Below, piece after piece: positions 1,357 through 7,979 of a stretch of DNA of 7,979 bases (its first letter is position 1; each line of letters starts with the position of its first letter). The notes under the pieces were generated by a model. It saw only the letters and a list, made by a program, of their open reading frames with translations, ran no database searches and was not told where the DNA came from. The stretch is taken from IMG/VR virus record IMGVR_UViG_2751185968_000016; one strand, given 5' to 3'. A program made the position numbers and the translations under genes. The DNA is from a virus. Its lineage: Duplodnaviria; Heunggongvirae; Uroviricota; Caudoviricetes.

Positions 1357-1420
1357 GAGCGTCGTTCGCTAATCATGGTCGCCGCCACTATAGCTGGTGG
1401 GCAACGACCGGGGTTGAACA

Positions 1421-3892
1421 TTAAAAATCAGCCTGATTCGGGATCAGTTTTTGCCAGATAACTGAAACGTATTTTGCCTGGTAACGGGCGTCATCAAGTG
1501 CATTATGGCGCTCACCTTCGAATGGAATAGCCGTTCTGGCATCGAAGTCTATGGCTTTCCCCAGCTCAACGATTGTGCGTACATCGCGATCGTTGTAGTA
1601 ACGCCACGGGCAGGGGATCCCCTGCCGTTCGTATGAACGGCGCAAAATCGTGTTGTCGAAGTTGGCTCCATTTCCCCAGACCTGAACAAAAAATTCACCG
1701 GAGTTTTCGTCGATAAATTCCCGCAATTGTAACAGTGCATCATCTAACGGGATTTCATCGGTCATAATGGCAGACTGCGCTTCACGTGATTGCTTCAGCC
1801 ACCTTTTAATGACGTCACGATCAATGACTCCGCCAGCAGTTTCCAGATCGATAGTCTTACTAAATTCCGGTCCCATATCTCCGGTTTGCGGATCGAAAAA
1901 TATTGCACCTATTGAGATAATCGGGGCATCAGGATTTTTTCCCATGGTTTCAAGGTCGATCATTAGATGGTCACACGTCCTGCTGGTGGATGTGATAACG
2001 TGATGACCGTTCATCGTAATTAAGGGATCTGCCGTCTCGCCAGTTTCACTATCGCTGGCGTGATCCTGAGCGCTACCAGCATTCTCCTTGTGTGGATGTT
2101 CAGCGCCTTCCATTTCCTTCGGATCATTTTCCTGAACTTCAACCTGATTCTCTTCATCGAATGTTTCCTGGTATGTTGCGTCACCCATCACCGCGCCACA
2201 ATCAGGGCAGTTGCCGCCACCGCTTTGACCGCAGGCGGTGCAGACTTTTTCCGGTTCCTGTTGCGCTACTGGCTCAGGTTGTTTCGTTTCTGGCTCGTTT
2301 TGTTGCGTATTTGGGCTGTTTTGTTCCGCTTTCTGGTCGTTCTGTTCCGATTCTTGCTGGTTCTGGTTTACAGAATCGCGGGTTTCAATCCCCTTTACCC
2401 ATTTCGGATCATTCGGGTCGCTAATCCCTGCAACAAATTCTCCGCGAGAGGCAGCAAGCAACTTATCGGCGTCAGGCTGGCTGATATTGGCTGCCTGCAT
2501 AATTTTGTTTACTTCGTCAGCGGTAACTTTTACCGGCTCTGGTTGTGCGGTCGTGTCAGATGCACCAGTATTTTGTTGTGAACCTGAGTACGTGCCGTTT
2601 TTACGTGCGAAGTATTCCTCTTTTGTGATTTCCGTAGCTCCCAAGGCTAGTGCTTTTTCCAGACCAGAAAGTTTGTTTGCGCGACCGTATTTTTCGCCAT
2701 CCTTGTCGGTGAAGAGGAAGTAGAACGGCCCCTCACGCTCTACAGATGGTTCGACTTCCACTTTGCATTCGGTTTTTTCGTTGCCCGGAATTGCCGTTTC
2801 CACTGCATCAGTTTCTGGTACTGGCGACGAGAGAGTATCAGTTGCGCTCTGATTTCTTCCTTCATCTTCAAACACGCCCTTTGTAGTCAGGTATTCAGTA
2901 ATGTATTTGTTCAGTGCCACAGGGTCTTTGTGAATGTCGATCGGACGTTCACGGACAAGGCCAAAAATAGTCTGGCGGTCGTAGCGAAGGGCATCAGGCT
3001 GTTTGCGCATTGATGCCGAGATACGCTTCCAGTCTTCGCGGTCGTTGTCGATAACTTCATTTTTTGCCCAGCGATGGATGCTGCCGTCAATGTTTCCGGC
3101 ATCCACATCACCAGGCCAGAGAGCGTAGGCCAGTTCGTCATCCAGTGTTTTCCATGTCTGCTTGTATTCGCGATGAATGGCAGCAATGACCGGGCTGATT
3201 TTTCCTGTTGAATTTTCACTGTGCTGTTGATTGGTTCTGGCGCGGGCGAGATCAACAACAGACGTGTATTTTCCGGTTTCCTTGCGTTCACCTTCGCGAC
3301 GTTTTTTCCAGATGCGCATCTCTGCCTGAATTTCGGGCCATTTGGCACCAGGCTTACATTTATGCTTAACCCACCCGATGGCATGCAGCTTAAGCTCCGG
3401 ATACATGGCGTTAACTTCTGGCATTTTCATCAACGCTTCAACGATATGTCCGTCGAATGTTGCCATGTCTTCCTGCAACAATTCCTGTGCGCTAATAACC
3501 ATATCAACGGTGATGTTTTCACATGTGTCGAACTTAACCATGACAGCGTTCTGTACTTCAGGGGCCAGCTTGTCAAAAGTGACGTTCATCGGATCGGATT
3601 CAGTCTCAACCGGGACAAAGGAAGCAGACTCCTCATCCCAGCGGTTTTCCTGCATATATTCAGCATCCCAGGAATCGAGGGCAGGGCGGGGTATACCGGG
3701 TTTATCCTCGCAGACAAGAAATTTATAAGCGCAGTCCTGAGCAGCCGGATAATGCTCCAGGAATTGCCAGTGAAATTTTGCGCGGGCGCGACGTTCATCA
3801 CCGGCTTCAATGGCTGTGGCTACAGCGACGGCACCTTCTTCCTTTATTGCCTGTTCGTCCGGAATGGCGGCGCAAATAAAGACTTTACTCAT
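1421..3892 (-). CDS. Large multidomain exonuclease-domain protein, 823 aa: YdfE-like N-terminal region, Q/E/N/P heptad linker, 4-Cys zinc ribbon, C-terminal DEDDh (DnaQ/RNase T-like) 3'-5' exonuclease
   Basis: Long ORF with GAGGT Shine-Dalgarno 7 nt upstream of the ATG at 3890-3892. C-terminal domain (residues ~640-815, nt ~1448-1975) has Exo I HLMIDLETMG, Exo II VWGNGANFDNTIL and Exo III HNALDDARYQAKY (H-x4-D), the DEDDh signature. Zinc ribbon CTACGQSGGGNCPDCG at residues 551-566 (nt 2195-2242). N-terminal ~330 residues resemble the K-12 Qin YdfE fragment as I recall it. The central segment KLLAASRGEFVAGISDPNDPKWVKGIETRD...CPDCGAVMGDATYQETFDEE resembles, from memory, the region just before the nuclease domain of Rac RecE. 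Confidence 0.85.
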   Translation of the reverse strand: MSKVFICAAIPDEQAIKEEGAVAVATAIEAGDERRARAKFHWQFLEHYPAAQDCAYKFLVCEDKPGIPRPALDSWDAEYMQENRWDEESASFVPVETESDPMNVTFDKLAPEVQNAVMVKFDTCENITVDMVISAQELLQEDMATFDGHIVEALMKMPEVNAMYPELKLHAIGWVKHKCKPGAKWPEIQAEMRIWKKRREGERKETGKYTSVVDLARARTNQQHSENSTGKISPVIAAIHREYKQTWKTLDDELAYALWPGDVDAGNIDGSIHRWAKNEVIDNDREDWKRISASMRKQPDALRYDRQTIFGLVRERPIDIHKDPVALNKYITEYLTTKGVFEDEGRNQSATDTLSSPVPETDAVETAIPGNEKTECKVEVEPSVEREGPFYFLFTDKDGEKYGRANKLSGLEKALALGATEITKEEYFARKNGTYSGSQQNTGASDTTAQPEPVKVTADEVNKIMQAANISQPDADKLLAASRGEFVAGISDPNDPKWVKGIETRDSVNQNQQESEQNDQKAEQNSPNTQQNEPETKQPEPVAQQEPEKVCTACGQSGGGNCPDCGAVMGDATYQETFDEENQVEVQENDPKEMEGAEHPHKENAGSAQDHASDSETGETADPLITMNGHHVITSTSRTCDHLMIDLETMGKNPDAPIISIGAIFFDPQTGDMGPEFSKTIDLETAGGVIDRDVIKRWLKQSREAQSAIMTDEIPLDDALLQLREFIDENSGEFFVQVWGNGANFDNTILRRSYERQGIPCPWRYYNDRDVRTIVELGKAIDFDARTAIPFEGERHNALDDARYQAKYVSVIWQKLIPNQADF

Positions 3893-3984: not shown

Positions 3985-4176
3985 TTAAAGACCTGCCGGG
4001 ATTTCGTTATTATCCTGGTGAATAACTTTATCGACCGGGTAACAGTTACCGGGAATTTTCTGTTCGGTTGCTGCAGTCACACACTCCTGCATTGTCCTGT
4101 GAACACTGACTGCAATATCAACTGGCTCTCCGGAAACAAGAAAAACTGTCAGAACAAGTGCAAATGCTGTATTCAT
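3985..4176 (-). CDS. ydfD: YdfD-like small membrane lysis protein, 63 aa
   Basis: Internal start of track ORF 3985..4230. MNTAFALVLTVFLVSG is a hydrophobic N-terminal segment. Its ATG (4174-4176) overlaps the dicB stop (4173-4175) as ATGA, indicating translational coupling. Length and sequence match what I recall of Qin YdfD. Confidence 0.7.
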   Translation of the reverse strand: MNTAFALVLTVFLVSGEPVDIAVSVHRTMQECVTAATEQKIPGNCYPVDKVIHQDNNEIPAGL

Positions 4177-4361
4177 TGCCAGCATCCTTTTTGTATCGGA
4201 CGTAAACGGGCCAGCATTGAAAGAATGCATATTTTATTTAATAGCTCCCGTTCGTGTTTTCTCTTGTTAATGGCATCTTCAGTAAATACAGGGTTACTGA
4301 TATTGACACCAATTTCAAAACAACCTTCAGACGTATTAACGTTTGGTAATAACGTTTCCAT
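4173..4361 (-). CDS. dicB: DicB cell-division inhibitor (MinC-dependent FtsZ-ring inhibitor), 62 aa
   Basis: Internal Met of track ORF 4173..4466 gives METLLPNVNTSEGCFEIGVNISNPVFTEDAINKRKHERELLNKICILSMLARLRPIQKGCWQ, near-identical to the K-12 DicB sequence as I recall it. It sits directly downstream of DicF, as in Qin. Confidence 0.85.
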   Translation of the reverse strand: METLLPNVNTSEGCFEIGVNISNPVFTEDAINKRKHERELLNKICILSMLARLRPIQKGCWQ

Positions 4362-4526
4362 TATCGCGTCCTCAACAATGAATTTTGTGATGCGGTGCCT
4401 GGTGCCTCCAGGTGACGTTAACCAGTTAACAATTAACGCCGGATACAGAGAATCCACCCATAACACTGTTTTTGGTTTTAACTGTTCCGCGTGCGCTCAG
4501 CCGCATTCACCACATCACAAAATTCA

Positions 4527-4573
4527 CTTTAAAAAGGGCGGCAGAGCAGTCACGGAGTAAAACTGATACCGCC
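4527..4573 (-). terminator. Rho-independent terminator forming the DicF 3' end
   Basis: GC-rich imperfect stem (GGCGG...CUG/CAG...CCGCC within the DicF 3' half) followed by a U-tract (minus-strand TTTTT at plus 4531-4535). Confidence 0.5.
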
Positions 4574-4588
4574 AAACGTCACCAGAAA
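4536..4588 (-). ncRNA. dicF: DicF small regulatory RNA (Hfq-dependent antisense regulator of ftsZ and other targets)
   Basis: Reverse complement of 4536-4588 reads TTTCTGGTGACGTTTGGCGGTATCAGTTTTACTCCGTGACTGCTCTGCCGCCC, which matches the 53-nt DicF sequence as I remember it. It is followed on the minus strand by a TTTTTAAAG U-tract and lies between the ydfC-like and dicB genes. Confidence 0.85.
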
Positions 4589-5539: not shown

Positions 5540-5568
5540 AATTTAGTTTTCTCATTATTTTTCGTCAA
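5540..5568 (-). promoter_or_regulatory. Candidate sigma70 promoter of the leftward ydfA-dicF-dicB operon (pL analogue)
   Basis: On the minus strand: -35 TTGACG (plus 5563-5568), 17-nt spacer, -10 TAAATT (plus 5540-5545). Flanked by operator-like inverted repeats. Confidence 0.35.
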
Positions 5569-5590
5569 GGTTTTTTGATGAGAAAACTCA
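5543..5590. promoter_or_regulatory. Two operator-like inverted repeats (TGAG-N4-CTCA type) flanking the -35 of the leftward promoter
   Basis: TGAGAAAACTCA at 5579-5590 and a degenerate inverted copy TTAGTTTTCTCA at 5543-5554, centres ~36 bp apart. The same 12-mer recurs at 6115-6126 in the repressor/cro intergenic region. Confidence 0.4.
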
Positions 5591-5655
5591 AGTGCTGGCG
5601 CAAGATAAAGCCAATACATTGAAATGTAAGGCTTTAAAATTTTGTGAAGGGATGA

Positions 5656-6063
5656 TTATTGATGCTTGTTGCGTTTGCGAGCCTCTAATAGCTCGGTGAA
5701 CAGGCGATTAAAATTCTCAACGCGGGCGCGGAGTTCGCTGAGTTGTGCTTGTTGCTCTGATTTAGGAAGTGCGCGATACAAACGCAGCATCTCTAACTCA
5801 TCTTCCGATAAGTCTAGGGTACTATCGAGTGAAACAGGGGGAGCTGGTGTTTTGTCCTCGTCGCCAAACAGTATCCAGGTTGGTGAACATTGCAATACCT
5901 CGGCGAGGCGATGCAAATTTTGCCCGCGCGGGGCTGTATGGTCACTTTCCCATAATGAAATTGATGAGCCAGATACGCCAGCAGCTTTGCTTAAACCGTT
6001 TTGACTTAAGCCTACCTGCTTACGTCTTTCTCTAATGCGTTGACCTAAAGTTTTCTCGTTCAT
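5656..6063 (-). CDS. dicA: DicA-like XRE-family HTH repressor (CI/C2 analogue), 135 aa
   Basis: Internal start MNEKTLGQRIRERRKQVGLSQNGLSKAAGVSGSSISLWE... gives 135 aa, the DicA length. Classic HTH_XRE pattern and a conserved LQCSPTWILFGDED segment. Divergent from the Cro-like gene. The track's 152-aa form is an upstream extension. Confidence 0.8.
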   Translation of the reverse strand: MNEKTLGQRIRERRKQVGLSQNGLSKAAGVSGSSISLWESDHTAPRGQNLHRLAEVLQCSPTWILFGDEDKTPAPPVSLDSTLDLSEDELEMLRLYRALPKSEQQAQLSELRARVENFNRLFTELLEARKRNKHQ

Positions 6064-6084
6064 ATTTAGATATCTTAATAATCC

Positions 6085-6128
6085 TTGACTTGAGATTCCT
6101 TGAGTGATTAGCATTGAGAAAACTCAAT
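6085..6128 (+). promoter_or_regulatory. Candidate rightward promoter (pR analogue) with overlapping operator
   Basis: -35 TTGACT (6085-6090), 18-nt spacer, -10 TAGCAT (6109-6114). Inverted repeat TTGAGAAAACTCAA (6114-6127) lies immediately downstream. Further TTGAG half-sites at 6090-6094 and 6100-6104. Confidence 0.4.
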
Positions 6129-6140
6129 ATTGGAGGTGCG

Positions 6141-6368
6141 ATGTTTAAATCAGACGTAATTAATTTTTACGGTACGAAAGCCAAAGTAGCGAAAGCTGCT
6201 GGCGTTGACCCATCTGCTGTTTCTCAATGGCAAGAGCTAGTTCCTGAAGGTCGCGCGATGCGTCTACAGGAGGCATCTGGCGGCGAGCTTCTGTATGATC
6301 CCAAGGTTTATGACGAATATCGTAAGACGAAGCGGGCGGGGCGGTTGAACAATGAAAATCACTCCTGA
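6141..6368 (+). CDS. Cro-like small HTH regulator of the YdaS/DicC family, 75 aa
   Basis: GGAGG Shine-Dalgarno at 6133-6137 and ATG at 6141; the track's 84-aa form starts upstream of the SD. Conserved YdaS/DicC-type core (FYGTKAKVAKAAGVDPSAVSQW). Divergent from the repressor. Confidence 0.75.
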   Translation: MFKSDVINFYGTKAKVAKAAGVDPSAVSQWQELVPEGRAMRLQEASGGELLYDPKVYDEYRKTKRAGRLNNENHS

Positions 6369-6873
6369 ACAGGCTCGTGAGGCTCTGGATGCCTGGATAT
6401 GTCGACCAGGAATGACACAGGAGCAGGCGACGATATTAATCACTGAAGCATTCTGGGCTTTGAAAGAGCGCCCGAACATCGATGTTCAGCGTGTCACAGA
6501 TGAAGGTGGCGCGGTTGATCAGCGAGCGCTTGGCGTTAATCGAGTGAAGATATTCGAACGCTGGAAGGCTATCGACACCAGGGATAAGCGTGAAAAGTTC
6601 ACGGCGCTAGTGCCTGCAATTATGGAGGCTATCCGGATTAATGATTTCAGGTTGTATCGTGAAATTAGTGACGGAAAAAGCATCACGTACATGATCGCCG
6701 GGTTAAACAAAGAATATGGCGATGTGGTGGAGTCCGGACTGCTTTTTGCTGATCCTGCCGTAGTGGATCGTGAAACTGACGAACTTATAGAAAAAGCAAT
6801 TGCTTTCAAACTTGCGTATCGACAGCAATACCAACAAAAAGCTGGATGGAATTATGAGCCTTCTTTTTGCTGA
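6352..6873 (+). CDS. YdaT-like protein, 173 aa (CII-position regulator; sometimes annotated as a toxin)
   Basis: Overlaps the Cro-like stop by 17 nt. ERWKAIDTRDKREKFTALVPAIMEAI resembles the Rac YdaT core as I recall it. Sits at the cII position of lambdoid maps. Confidence 0.7.
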   Translation: MKITPEQAREALDAWICRPGMTQEQATILITEAFWALKERPNIDVQRVTDEGGAVDQRALGVNRVKIFERWKAIDTRDKREKFTALVPAIMEAIRINDFRLYREISDGKSITYMIAGLNKEYGDVVESGLLFADPAVVDRETDELIEKAIAFKLAYRQQYQQKAGWNYEPSFC

Positions 6874-7631
6874 ACGCCCACTGGTTATAAACACACAGCT
6901 TGCGATGAAGATTGGCTTAAATGAAGCCATTGTGTTGCAGCAGTTGCATTACTGGTTGAGAGATACCAATTCCGGCATGGAATGTGATGGTGTTCGCTGG
7001 ATTTACAACACAACGGAACAATGGCTGGAACAGTTCCCATTCTGGTCAGAGTCAACGTTAAAGCGCGCGTTTGCAAGTCTGAAAACGCTGGGGCTCTTGC
7101 GTTGTGAAAAGCTCAATAAATCAAAGCGCGATATGACCAATTTCTACACGATTAACTATGGGAGCGAGCTTTTAGATGATGGCAAATTGAGCGAATCCAT
7201 CGGTTCAAAATGCGCCGCTCCATCAGGTCAAAATGACACGATGGAAGAGGTCAAAATGAAACGCTCCATTGGTTCAAAACGACCCAATGTCATCGGGTCA
7301 AAATGGCCCGATGATCCTACAGAGAATACAACAGAGATTACTACAGAGAATAAAAACACTTTTCGTCCGGAAGCTTCGCAACCGGACCCGCAGACGGCTG
7401 AACAGGATTTTTTAATCCGGCACCCTGGCGCAGTTGTGTTTAGTGCGAAAAAACGCCAGTGGGGTAGCCAGGAGGATCTGGCGTGTGCGCAGTGGATATG
7501 GGGGCGGATCGTGGGTCTCTACGAACAGGCCGCCAGTGATGATGGCGAGATCATGCGACCAAAAGAGCCTAACTGGACTGTCTGGGCCAATGATGTGCGC
7601 ACAATGCGGATGCTGGATGGCAGAAGCCACA
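6854..7631 (+). pseudogene. Replication initiator (lambda O-like replisome organizer), C-terminally truncated by IS insertion
   Basis: The N-terminal domain FAERPLVINTQLAMKIGLNEAIVLQQLHYWL...TLKRAFASLKTLGLL is typical of phage O-type initiators. Iterons lie inside the gene. Homology-independent break at 7631/7632, where an IS terminal inverted repeat begins; the remaining track translation to 7792 is read-through into the IS. Confidence 0.6.
7195..7306. repeat. Five direct iterons (consensus about CATCGGTCAAAATG) at 23-24 bp spacing: candidate prophage replication origin
   Basis: TCAAAA cores at 7205, 7228, 7251, 7274 and 7298. Followed by an A-rich segment with a duplicated TACAGAGAATA (7318-7353). 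Embedded in the O-like gene, as lambda ori is in O. Confidence 0.6.
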
Positions 7632-7671
7632 TGAACCGCTCCGGGTTTCCTGGAGAGTGTTTTATCTGTGA
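7632..7671. repeat. Terminal inverted repeat of the IS3-family element
   Basis: TGAACCGCTCCGGGTTTCCTGGAGAG... begins with the 5'-TG characteristic of IS3-family ends and resembles the IS629/IS1203 end sequence as I recall it. Confidence 0.5.
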
Positions 7672-7673
7672 AC

Positions 7674-7979
7674 TCAGGCTGCCAGATCATCGTTTCCGAT
7701 GGAAGCATAATAAGCTTTTTCTGCTTCTGCCGGAGGGATGTGGCCCAGCCTTTCCAGCAATCGTCGATTATTATACCAGTCCACCCACGTGAGTGTGGCC
7801 AGTTCCACTTCTGCACGGTTTTTCCAGCTCTTACGGTGTATTACCTCCGCTTTGTAAAGACCATTGATGCTCTCCGCCATCGCGTTGTCATACGAGTCGC
7901 CTGTACTTCCTGTTGATGCCAGTAATCCGGCTTCCTTAAGCCGCTGTGTGTAGGCCAGCGATACATACTGAGAACCTTT
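7674..7979 (-). CDS. IS3-family transposase OrfB, C-terminal 101 aa (5' end outside the window)
   Basis: Minus-strand frame is open from the window end to the stop at 7674-7676: KGSQYVSLAYTQRLKEAGLLASTGSTGDSYDNAMAESINGLYKAEVIH...NNRRLLERLGH..., containing the DDE-domain YDNA..AES block typical of IS3-family OrfB. Confidence 0.85.
   Translation of the reverse strand, partial: KGSQYVSLAYTQRLKEAGLLASTGSTGDSYDNAMAESINGLYKAEVIHRKSWKNRAEVELATLTWVDWYNNRRLLERLGHIPPAEAEKAYYASIGNDDLAA

Follow-up and report, generated by a model that had tools for sequence, protein, structure and literature searches.

In a stretch of 7,979 nucleotides (nt) from the Caudoviricetes record IMGVR_UViG_2751185968_000016 of IMG/VR (hereafter the window), which represents the early part of a lambdoid prophage, two small rightward genes coding for proteins of 75 and 173 amino acids (aa) overlap by 17 nt (6352-6368) between a divergently transcribed repressor gene and an O-like replication initiator gene (Table 1). 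A reading of this DNA made earlier from its letters alone (the sequence-only reading) had placed a YdaS-like and YdaT-like pair with a 17-nt overlap at 6141-6873, divergent from the repressor and directly upstream of the replication gene, and had preferred for it the role of Cro and CII analogues over that of a toxin-antitoxin system. The open reading frames (ORFs) lie at exactly these positions; the repressor is encoded on the opposite strand across a 77-bp intergenic region, and the replication gene, whose product matches PHROG 391 (E = 1.8e-59), begins 20 nt before the end of the 173-aa gene. Both coding sequences are annotated identically by RefSeq in the 100% identical region of Escherichia coli 55989, one of many E. 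coli chromosomes that match the window at 100% over the 1.4 kb surrounding the pair, and the repressor, cro and CII-like genes together display 99.6% DNA identity to the temperate phages mEp460 and HannyBb. We consider it very probable that the two genes constitute the rightward early regulatory module in a lambdoid prophage of the Qin/mEp460 type and that they code for a Cro and a CII analogue, the latter acting as an activator through two binding sites.

By its sequence relationships the 75-aa protein is a Cro of the DicC type within the P22 Cro family. It exceeds the cut-offs of Pfam P22_Cro (PF14549; 59.3 bits against 30.2) and NCBIfam DicC (NF007282; 165.3 bits against 130, aligned over residues 1-75 of 75), matches the structure of P22 Cro (PDB 1RZS, E = 1.9e-12), and is 70% identical to DicC of E. 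coli K-12. Its score against Pfam YdaS_toxin (PF15943) is 22.7 bits, below the cut-off of 30, and its alignment with Rac YdaS covers 46 aa only, at 33% identity. The YdaS-like label given to it earlier hence needs correction: the protein is a related helix-turn-helix (HTH) protein that, by the curated threshold, falls outside the YdaS family and belongs to that of DicC and P22 Cro instead. Its gene is also laid out as a cro, being the first of the rightward operon and divergent from the repressor gene, with candidate operators between the two. DicA and DicC form an experimentally supported bistable switch of the CI/Cro type, in which DicC of K-12 and O157 binds the operators and represses the repressor maintenance promoter (PMC10448788). 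Comparison with the Qin prophage of K-12 further reveals a mosaic, in which DNA identity is ~55% for the repressor gene, for the operators and for the HTH half of cro, and 95-100% from ~6237 to ~6633. As the first three have diverged in concert, the N-terminal, specificity half of Cro appears to travel with the repressor and its operators, which is what is expected of a Cro.

The repressor itself is of the DicA type (NCBIfam DicA, 239 bits against a cut-off of 101), with 57% identity to DicA of K-12 and a match to Pfam HTH_3. Like DicA, it is devoid of the LexA-type S24 peptidase domain responsible for cleavage; therefore, the prophage is presumably induced via a Rem-type antirepressor rather than via RecA-mediated cleavage. 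A rem gene is present in mEp460 and 55989, in the region beyond the downstream end of the window. The OR-like region holds three candidate operators spaced by 24-25 bp, the best copy being TTGAGAAAACTCAA, which overlap a pR-like promoter (TTGACT at 6085, an 18-nt spacer, and TAGCAT at 6114). The OL-like region contains a 13-nt exact repeat of the OR copy and lies at a pL-like promoter (TTGACG-17-TAAATT, minus strand, 5568 to 5540) at the head of the dicBF-type operon; DicA/DicC loci have been described as having three operators per promoter at their pR and pL equivalents (PMC10448788). The operator pattern TTGAGN4CTCAA occurs six times in the window against 4.3 expected, a count that is not significant, and five of these six matches sit at the two promoter regions, so that it is by their placement that we regard them as candidate operators. 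A perfect 14-nt inverted repeat (5975-5988 and 6192-6205) was also observed; it arises because the HTH segments of the repressor and Cro, encoded on opposite strands, both contain K-A-A-G-V in identical codons. The two HTHs are 50% identical over 16 residues, a likeness that suggests either common ancestry or gene conversion.

Profile searches and structure prediction concur in placing the 173-aa protein within the YdaT family, as a genuine though divergent member. It scores 26.1 bits against Pfam YdaT (PF06254; cut-off 21) and matches PHROG 163, 'CII-like transcriptional activator', at 2.3e-40. A pairwise comparison with Rac YdaT aligned 29 residues only, and a search of the PDB with the single sequence returned no match; a profile built from 25 sequences of the family recovered the YdaT structures 8BT1 (1.1e-26) and 3C4R (8.7e-26). 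A deep search for relatives found only 81 representatives among 1.84 billion proteins. An AlphaFold2 model of the protein (predicted local distance difference test score, pLDDT, 87) retrieved 8BT1/3C4R as its top four PDB matches in Foldseek searches (probability 1.0; target-normalised template modelling score 0.57-0.64), and a Foldseek comparison with viral predicted structures gave no meaningful match. The predicted N-terminal helices (residues 5-16, 23-36, 57-73, 77-97 and 99-106) would form a five-helix, POU-like HTH domain with a long alpha2-alpha3 loop of 20 residues (37-56), as is typical of the YdaT fold. Within the recognition helix, alpha3, R70 is shared by all of 22 sequences and W71 by nearly all; they align with R57 and W58 of Rac YdaT, of which R57 is needed for DNA binding, as seen with an H56A/R57A mutant, and W58 has been proposed to maintain the fold (PMC11879457). 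The YdaT-like label of the sequence-only reading is thus borne out by both profile and fold. Membership of the lambda CII family was considered and rejected, as the Pfam scan yielded no Phage_CII match; we regard the protein as a functional analogue of CII instead.

Rac YdaT had been put at about 140 aa in the same reading, and the K-12 protein is indeed of 140 aa, which leaves 33 extra residues in the window protein, suspected at the time to form an extra C-terminal segment. These residues are scattered: ~13 lie in the region of the alpha2-alpha3 loop, three at the hinge, and 12 constitute an insertion (about 131-142) within the equivalent of alpha6, with a few at the end. The suspicion was thus right in part only, as the extra residues do not form a simple tail. 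In the model the 12-residue insertion breaks the alpha6 equivalent, so that a pair of C-terminal helices (111-130 and 135-164) takes the place of a single one; the last 6-9 residues are disordered. As modelled, the protein bears no discrete added C-terminal domain; rather, its oligomerisation region is predicted to have been remodelled, and the split helix may alter the oligomeric state in the subfamily to which the window protein belongs.

YdfX of the K-12 Qin prophage (96 aa), previously termed the YdaT homologue of Qin (PMC11879457), shares 98% identity with residues 1-93 of the 173-aa protein and continues with unrelated sequence. Given this shared segment and the identical 17-nt overlap with dicC, sequence comparison identifies YdfX as a truncated remnant of the 173-aa gene; K-12 ydfW shows no similarity to the remaining part of that gene. 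Many E. coli copies are likewise truncated or chimeric near residue 93, and the full-length form constitutes the commonest cluster (1548 and 1093 member sequences).

At the junction of the cro and CII-like genes lies a YdaT-type box with the ATG of the 173-aa gene in its spacer. It is in the same register as the footprinted YdaT-box of Rac, ATGATTCATGAAAATCAA, in which the ydaT ATG is also within the spacer (PMC11879457), and YdaT of both Rac and CP-933P binds such a box and activates a leftward promoter (PMC11879457, PMC9986795, PMC8630535). The window's box matches 9 of the 12 positions of the CP-933P consensus TTGATT-N6-AATCAA; with up to three mismatches this consensus occurs three times in the window against 6.2 expected, and is hence not enriched. 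Across ATG-anchored loci, the pattern TGA-N10-TCA straddles the start codon in each of seven lineages (six scripted alignment rows plus the window's box, which was read directly), with half-sites that co-vary and flanks that cannot be aligned.

When the window's own half-sites are used, the signal becomes clear and it is seen only with them: TTGAAC-N6-AATCA has exactly two perfect copies in the window, the junction box and a second one at 1414-1430, upstream of xis/int. With one mismatch allowed there are three matches against 0.27 expected, a number reached in none of 200 shuffles. Seven loci were examined, five of which, among them K-12 Rac, are diverged lineages, and the box variant proper to the locus recurs upstream of xis in each: in the window and, with one mismatch at most and co-varying half-sites, in mEp460, 55989, a Citrobacter, a Raoultella, K-12 Rac and a metagenomic lineage. 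Its distance to xis is 50-66 nt throughout, despite differing families of xis/int and differing upstream genes. Among 116 further loci, the own box type was found upstream in 61 of the 74 of type A and in 35 of the 42 of Rac type, and the other type in none; in type-A loci it stands ahead of four different xis-type ORFs. In K-12 Rac, a near-perfect YdaT-box, CTGATTATTAATAATCAA, lies between rcbA and xisR (NC_000913 1413503-1413520), 51 nt upstream of xisR, and is followed 21 nt later by TAACAT. A third near-match in the window, TTCAACAGGAAAAATCAG (3195-3212, minus strand; two mismatches over 12 positions), is inside the exonuclease gene and is kept together with that gene in mEp460 and 55989; it is possibly a chance occurrence.

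Both boxes are followed on the minus strand by a -10-like hexamer. On that strand, 14 of 14 rows (eight ATG-proximal and six xis-proximal) have a TAnnnT hexamer beginning 19-21 nt beyond the box, the background being 0.027 per site, and after the ATG-proximal box it begins at 20-21 nt in all eight loci (seven lineages). In K-12 Rac, TATGAT lies next to the YdaT-box. No -35 hexamer accompanies these elements at either box, and scans for consensus promoters detected no leftward promoter at either, which is consistent with, though not proof of, activator-dependent promoters. The fixed spacing puts the centre of the box near -41.5 to -42.5, which is the geometry of a class-II activator. From this geometry and the missing -35 we infer two activator-dependent leftward promoters: a pRE-like one (-10 at 6324-6319), antisense to cro and directed towards the repressor gene, and a pI-like one (-10 at 1392-1387), directed towards xis/int. 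No paQ-like site was found.

A hairpin with 12 predicted pairs (z = -3.4), which holds the -10-like hexamer in its loop, separates the second box from xis. Such a hairpin is found upstream of xis in each of six lineages, with about 9-13 predicted pairs and lineage-specific stems, beginning 4-6 nt after the box and followed by no U-run. Its fold z-scores against shuffles range from -2.0 to -3.4 in five lineages and are weak in Rac (-0.9). RNAalifold, applied to a MAFFT alignment of the regions upstream of xis, recovered six pairs only, as the stems were misaligned, and the per-sequence folds are more informative. The hairpin would exist in read-through transcripts only.

We propose the following scheme for the module. 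Transcription of cro would start at the pR-like promoter, which the DicA-type repressor is predicted to close via the three operators; Cro would compete for the same operators and thereby lower expression of the repressor gene. The 173-aa protein, as an HTH-containing CII analogue with a C-terminal helical oligomerisation region, would bind the TTGAAC-N6-AATCA inverted repeat at both boxes, each of which is centred ~41-42 bp upstream of a predicted leftward start with a -10 element and no -35. It would thus serve as a class-II-type activator of the pRE-like promoter, which reads into the repressor gene, and of the pI-like promoter, which reads into the integration genes, and would so tip an infecting phage towards lysogeny.

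The earlier preference for Cro and CII analogues over a toxin-antitoxin pair is upheld by homology, fold, synteny, mosaic structure and the conserved anatomy of the binding sites: the order of a leftward repressor gene followed by rightward cro-type, YdaT-type and replication genes is kept in distant loci, and mEp460, a functional temperate phage, carries the identical module. Two small overlapping genes in one operon might bring to mind a type II toxin-antitoxin pair, composed of a protein toxic to the cell and a partner that neutralises this toxin, as might the database names (Pfam YdaS_toxin and YdaT_toxin; RefSeq 'toxin YdaT family protein') and the toxicity of Rac YdaS and YdaT upon ectopic expression (PMC5700377, PMC5700373, PMC11879457). 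We reject this reading as exceedingly improbable, since both proteins belong to HTH families of DNA binders, their genes are embedded in a phage immunity region, and neither matched a PADLOC model. The 75-aa protein is a member of the P22-Cro/DicC family, the HTH fold of the 173-aa protein matches a characterised transcription factor and is without an enzymatic or pore-like toxin fold, and the pair sits between repressor and replication genes, overlapping the replication operon, in a functional temperate phage. Published tests of homologues also revealed no toxin-antitoxin behaviour (PMC8630535, PMC11879457, PMC5917428): CP-933P YdaT is not toxic, the toxicity of Rac YdaT is explained by activation of the host gene rcsA, and tests for specific neutralisation by direct antitoxin binding were negative for homologues (PMC8630535).

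Two other explanations were weighed. The 173-aa protein might be mainly a repressor or roadblock that, for example, autoregulates its translation or transcription across its own ATG and stops read-through into xis/int; the box does cover the start codon of its gene, the AT-rich spacer of the xis-proximal box (TTTAAT, minus strand) resembles a -10 element, and a structural paper uses the wording 'CII repressor' (PMC9986795). We deem this unlikely because a -10-like hexamer at fixed spacing without a -35, at both sites and in all lineages, fits activation, and because YdaT of Rac and CP-933P activates the leftward promoter in reporter assays (PMC11879457, PMC8630535). It is also conceivable, at a very low probability, that the two genes are intact but idle passengers of a decaying prophage, with no role beyond that of DicA/DicC on the dicBF-type operon. 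The interruption of the replication gene by an insertion sequence (IS) element at 7631, the 1-nt deletion that fuses xis and int, and the breakage of many E. coli copies of the 173-aa gene near residue 93, K-12 YdfX included, would all agree with such decay; however, it would bear on the present use of the genes and not on their identity, and the full-length form is both the commonest cluster and present at 99.6% DNA identity in functional phages.

The interpretation of the pair as Cro and a two-promoter CII analogue must itself be weighed against several observations. The junction box of the window is a weak palindrome, with 3 of 6 symmetric positions, and the 29-fold activation by Rac YdaT has been assigned to PracR4, ~190 bp from the box and not adjacent to it (PMC11879457). 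A promoter upstream of xis would express Xis together with Int, unlike lambda pI. Half of the xis-proximal box lies within the 3' end of the exonuclease gene that is common to type-A loci, and linkage to this gene could partly explain why the box has been retained there; retention by linkage alone is disfavoured because independent lineages also keep their own box upstream of xis. In YdaT tetramers a single long alpha6 per chain builds an antiparallel four-helix bundle, whereas our monomer model shows two helices split by the insertion, and with this predicted break the oligomeric state of the window protein may be a different one. Moreover, the copy of the prophage in the window is probably replication-defective, as its O-like gene is split by the IS element; together with the xis-int frameshift, this implies that the switch may now be limited to the control of the dicBF-type operon.

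Lambda CII activates pRE, pI and paQ via sites overlapping the -35 region. The modules of lambda (Cro/CII) and P22 (Cro/C1) occupy the same genomic position and follow the same logic as that of the window, whose proposed targets parallel pRE and pI, and P22 Cro is a true homologue of the window Cro. In contrast, lambda CII recognises TTGC-N6-TTGC direct repeats straddling the -35, whereas the window box is an inverted repeat near -42, and lambda pI lies inside xis, whereas the pI-like site lies upstream of it. Closer at hand, dicC-ydfX of K-12 Qin, with dicA, has the same gene order, the same 17-nt overlap, and a dicF small RNA (sRNA) and dicB homologue in the left operon, but differs in its truncated YdfX, where the window gene is intact, and in its immunity type, as seen in the divergent repressor, operators and HTH half of Cro. 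In mEp460 and HannyBb, which are functional temperate phages, both boxes are present as in the window; these phages differ in their xis/int module, their intact replication gene and their freedom from the IS element. The former has been described as a functional temperate phage with homologues of dicB, dicF, dicAC and rem (PMC10448788). The YdaS/YdaT pairs of Rac and CP-933P (8BT1; also 3C4R) share with the window pair the position, the YdaT fold, the R-W pair of the recognition helix and the box with the ATG in its spacer. They differ in their half-sites (TGATT/AATCA, against TTGAAC/AATCAC in the window) and in the YdaS type of the partner, which in the window is of the P22-Cro/DicC type; the window protein, for its part, has the longer alpha2-alpha3 loop and an alpha6 interrupted by 12 residues. 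Rac and CP-933P YdaT are, by experiment, tetrameric CII-like activators (PMC11879457, PMC9986795, PMC8630535).

It is established that pairs of the YdaS/YdaT type are Cro/CII analogues and not toxin-antitoxin systems (PMC5917428, PMC8630535, PMC9986795, PMC11879457), and the Cro/CII reading of our locus is correct but has already been published for the Rac, CP-933P and Qin homologues (PMC5917428, PMC8630535, PMC9986795, PMC11879457, PMC10448788). Our result is hence mostly a correction of annotation: the 'toxin YdaT family protein', a name given in a region that about 775 complete E. coli genomes contain (counting genomes in which 80% or more of the 1.4-kb query is covered), is very probably a regulator of lysogeny, and for the pair we favour the names DicC-type Cro and intact YdfX/YdaT-family CII analogue. 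The new part is modest, and consists of the conserved second box before xis/int and of a class-II geometry that is fixed at both boxes; together they turn a positional likeness to CII into a testable regulon across an enterobacterial prophage family. The literature searched gave no reference to a YdaT site in front of xis/int, to a -10 element next to the box, or to the K-12 Rac box described above; the study of Rac records two YdaT-binding areas in that prophage (PMC11879457).

On balance we lean towards the view that YdaT-family CII analogues, Rac YdaT included, control a two-promoter regulon, in which a lineage-specific box lies at ~-42 of two leftward promoters, one adjacent to the junction box and one upstream of xis/int. 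If this is true, the pI equivalent would complete the analogy with lambda CII, and it would suggest that the real pRE is box-adjacent and not 190 bp away. Such a regulon would also bear on how excision of Rac is coupled to the RacR/YdaS/YdaT switch, as it would directly explain the reported increase of xisR/intR at low RacR. Transcripts of xisR/intR go up ~100-fold upon RacR depletion (PMC11014345), an observation that is compatible with the two-promoter proposal without being specific evidence for it.

Table 1. Genes, regulatory elements and other features located in the window
Feature	Position	Strand	Details
cro analogue, DicC type	6141-6368	plus	75 aa; ATG preceded by GGAGG
CII analogue, YdaT family	6352-6873	plus	173 aa
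Junction box, YdaT-type	6345-6362		TTGAAC-AATGAA-AATCAC (TTGAACAATGAAAATCAC); ATG of 173-aa gene in 6-nt spacer; proposed pRE-like site
-10-like hexamer TACGAT	6319-6324	minus	20 nt after junction box; predicted start near 6312
Second (xis-proximal) box	1414-1431		TTGAAC-ATTAAA-AATCAG; overlaps stop codon of exonuclease gene, 58 nt upstream of xis(-int) ATG 1356; proposed pI-like site
-10-like hexamer TATAGT	1387-1392	minus	21 nt after xis-proximal box; predicted start near 1380
Predicted hairpin	1377-1409	minus	between box and xis
DicA-type repressor gene	5656-6063	minus	135 aa
OR-like region	6065-6127		candidate operators 6065-6078, 6090-6103 and 6114-6127, 14 bp each
OL-like region	5540-5591	minus	candidate operators 5542-5555 and 5578-5591
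O-like replication initiator gene	from ATG 6854	plus	interrupted at 7631/7632
IS element	7632-7979		transposase fragment 7674-7880, minus strand; rve_3/rve_2 Pfam matches
int	1-1356	minus	
Exonuclease gene	1421-3892	minus	823 aa
DUF1482 gene		minus	
DicB homologue	4173-4466	minus	
DicF sRNA	4536-4587	minus	full-length; Rfam 76.7 bits, gathering score 48
DUF1391 gene		minus	

The remaining genes of the window lie to the left of the repressor, where the DicF sRNA upstream of the DicB homologue makes the left operon a complete, Qin-like cell-division-inhibitor operon of the dicBF type. At the other end, the identity with E. coli 55989 stops at 7631, where the IS element begins within the O-like gene; this element is probably of the IS3 family, the matches tested being those to the rve integrase core in Pfam. 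Relative to 55989, the window also has a single-base deletion in a C-run (1100-1140, at about 1122), as a result of which the 82-aa xis and the 376-aa int form a single ORF of 451 aa; the deletion represents a genuine, inactivating frameshift or else an error of sequencing.

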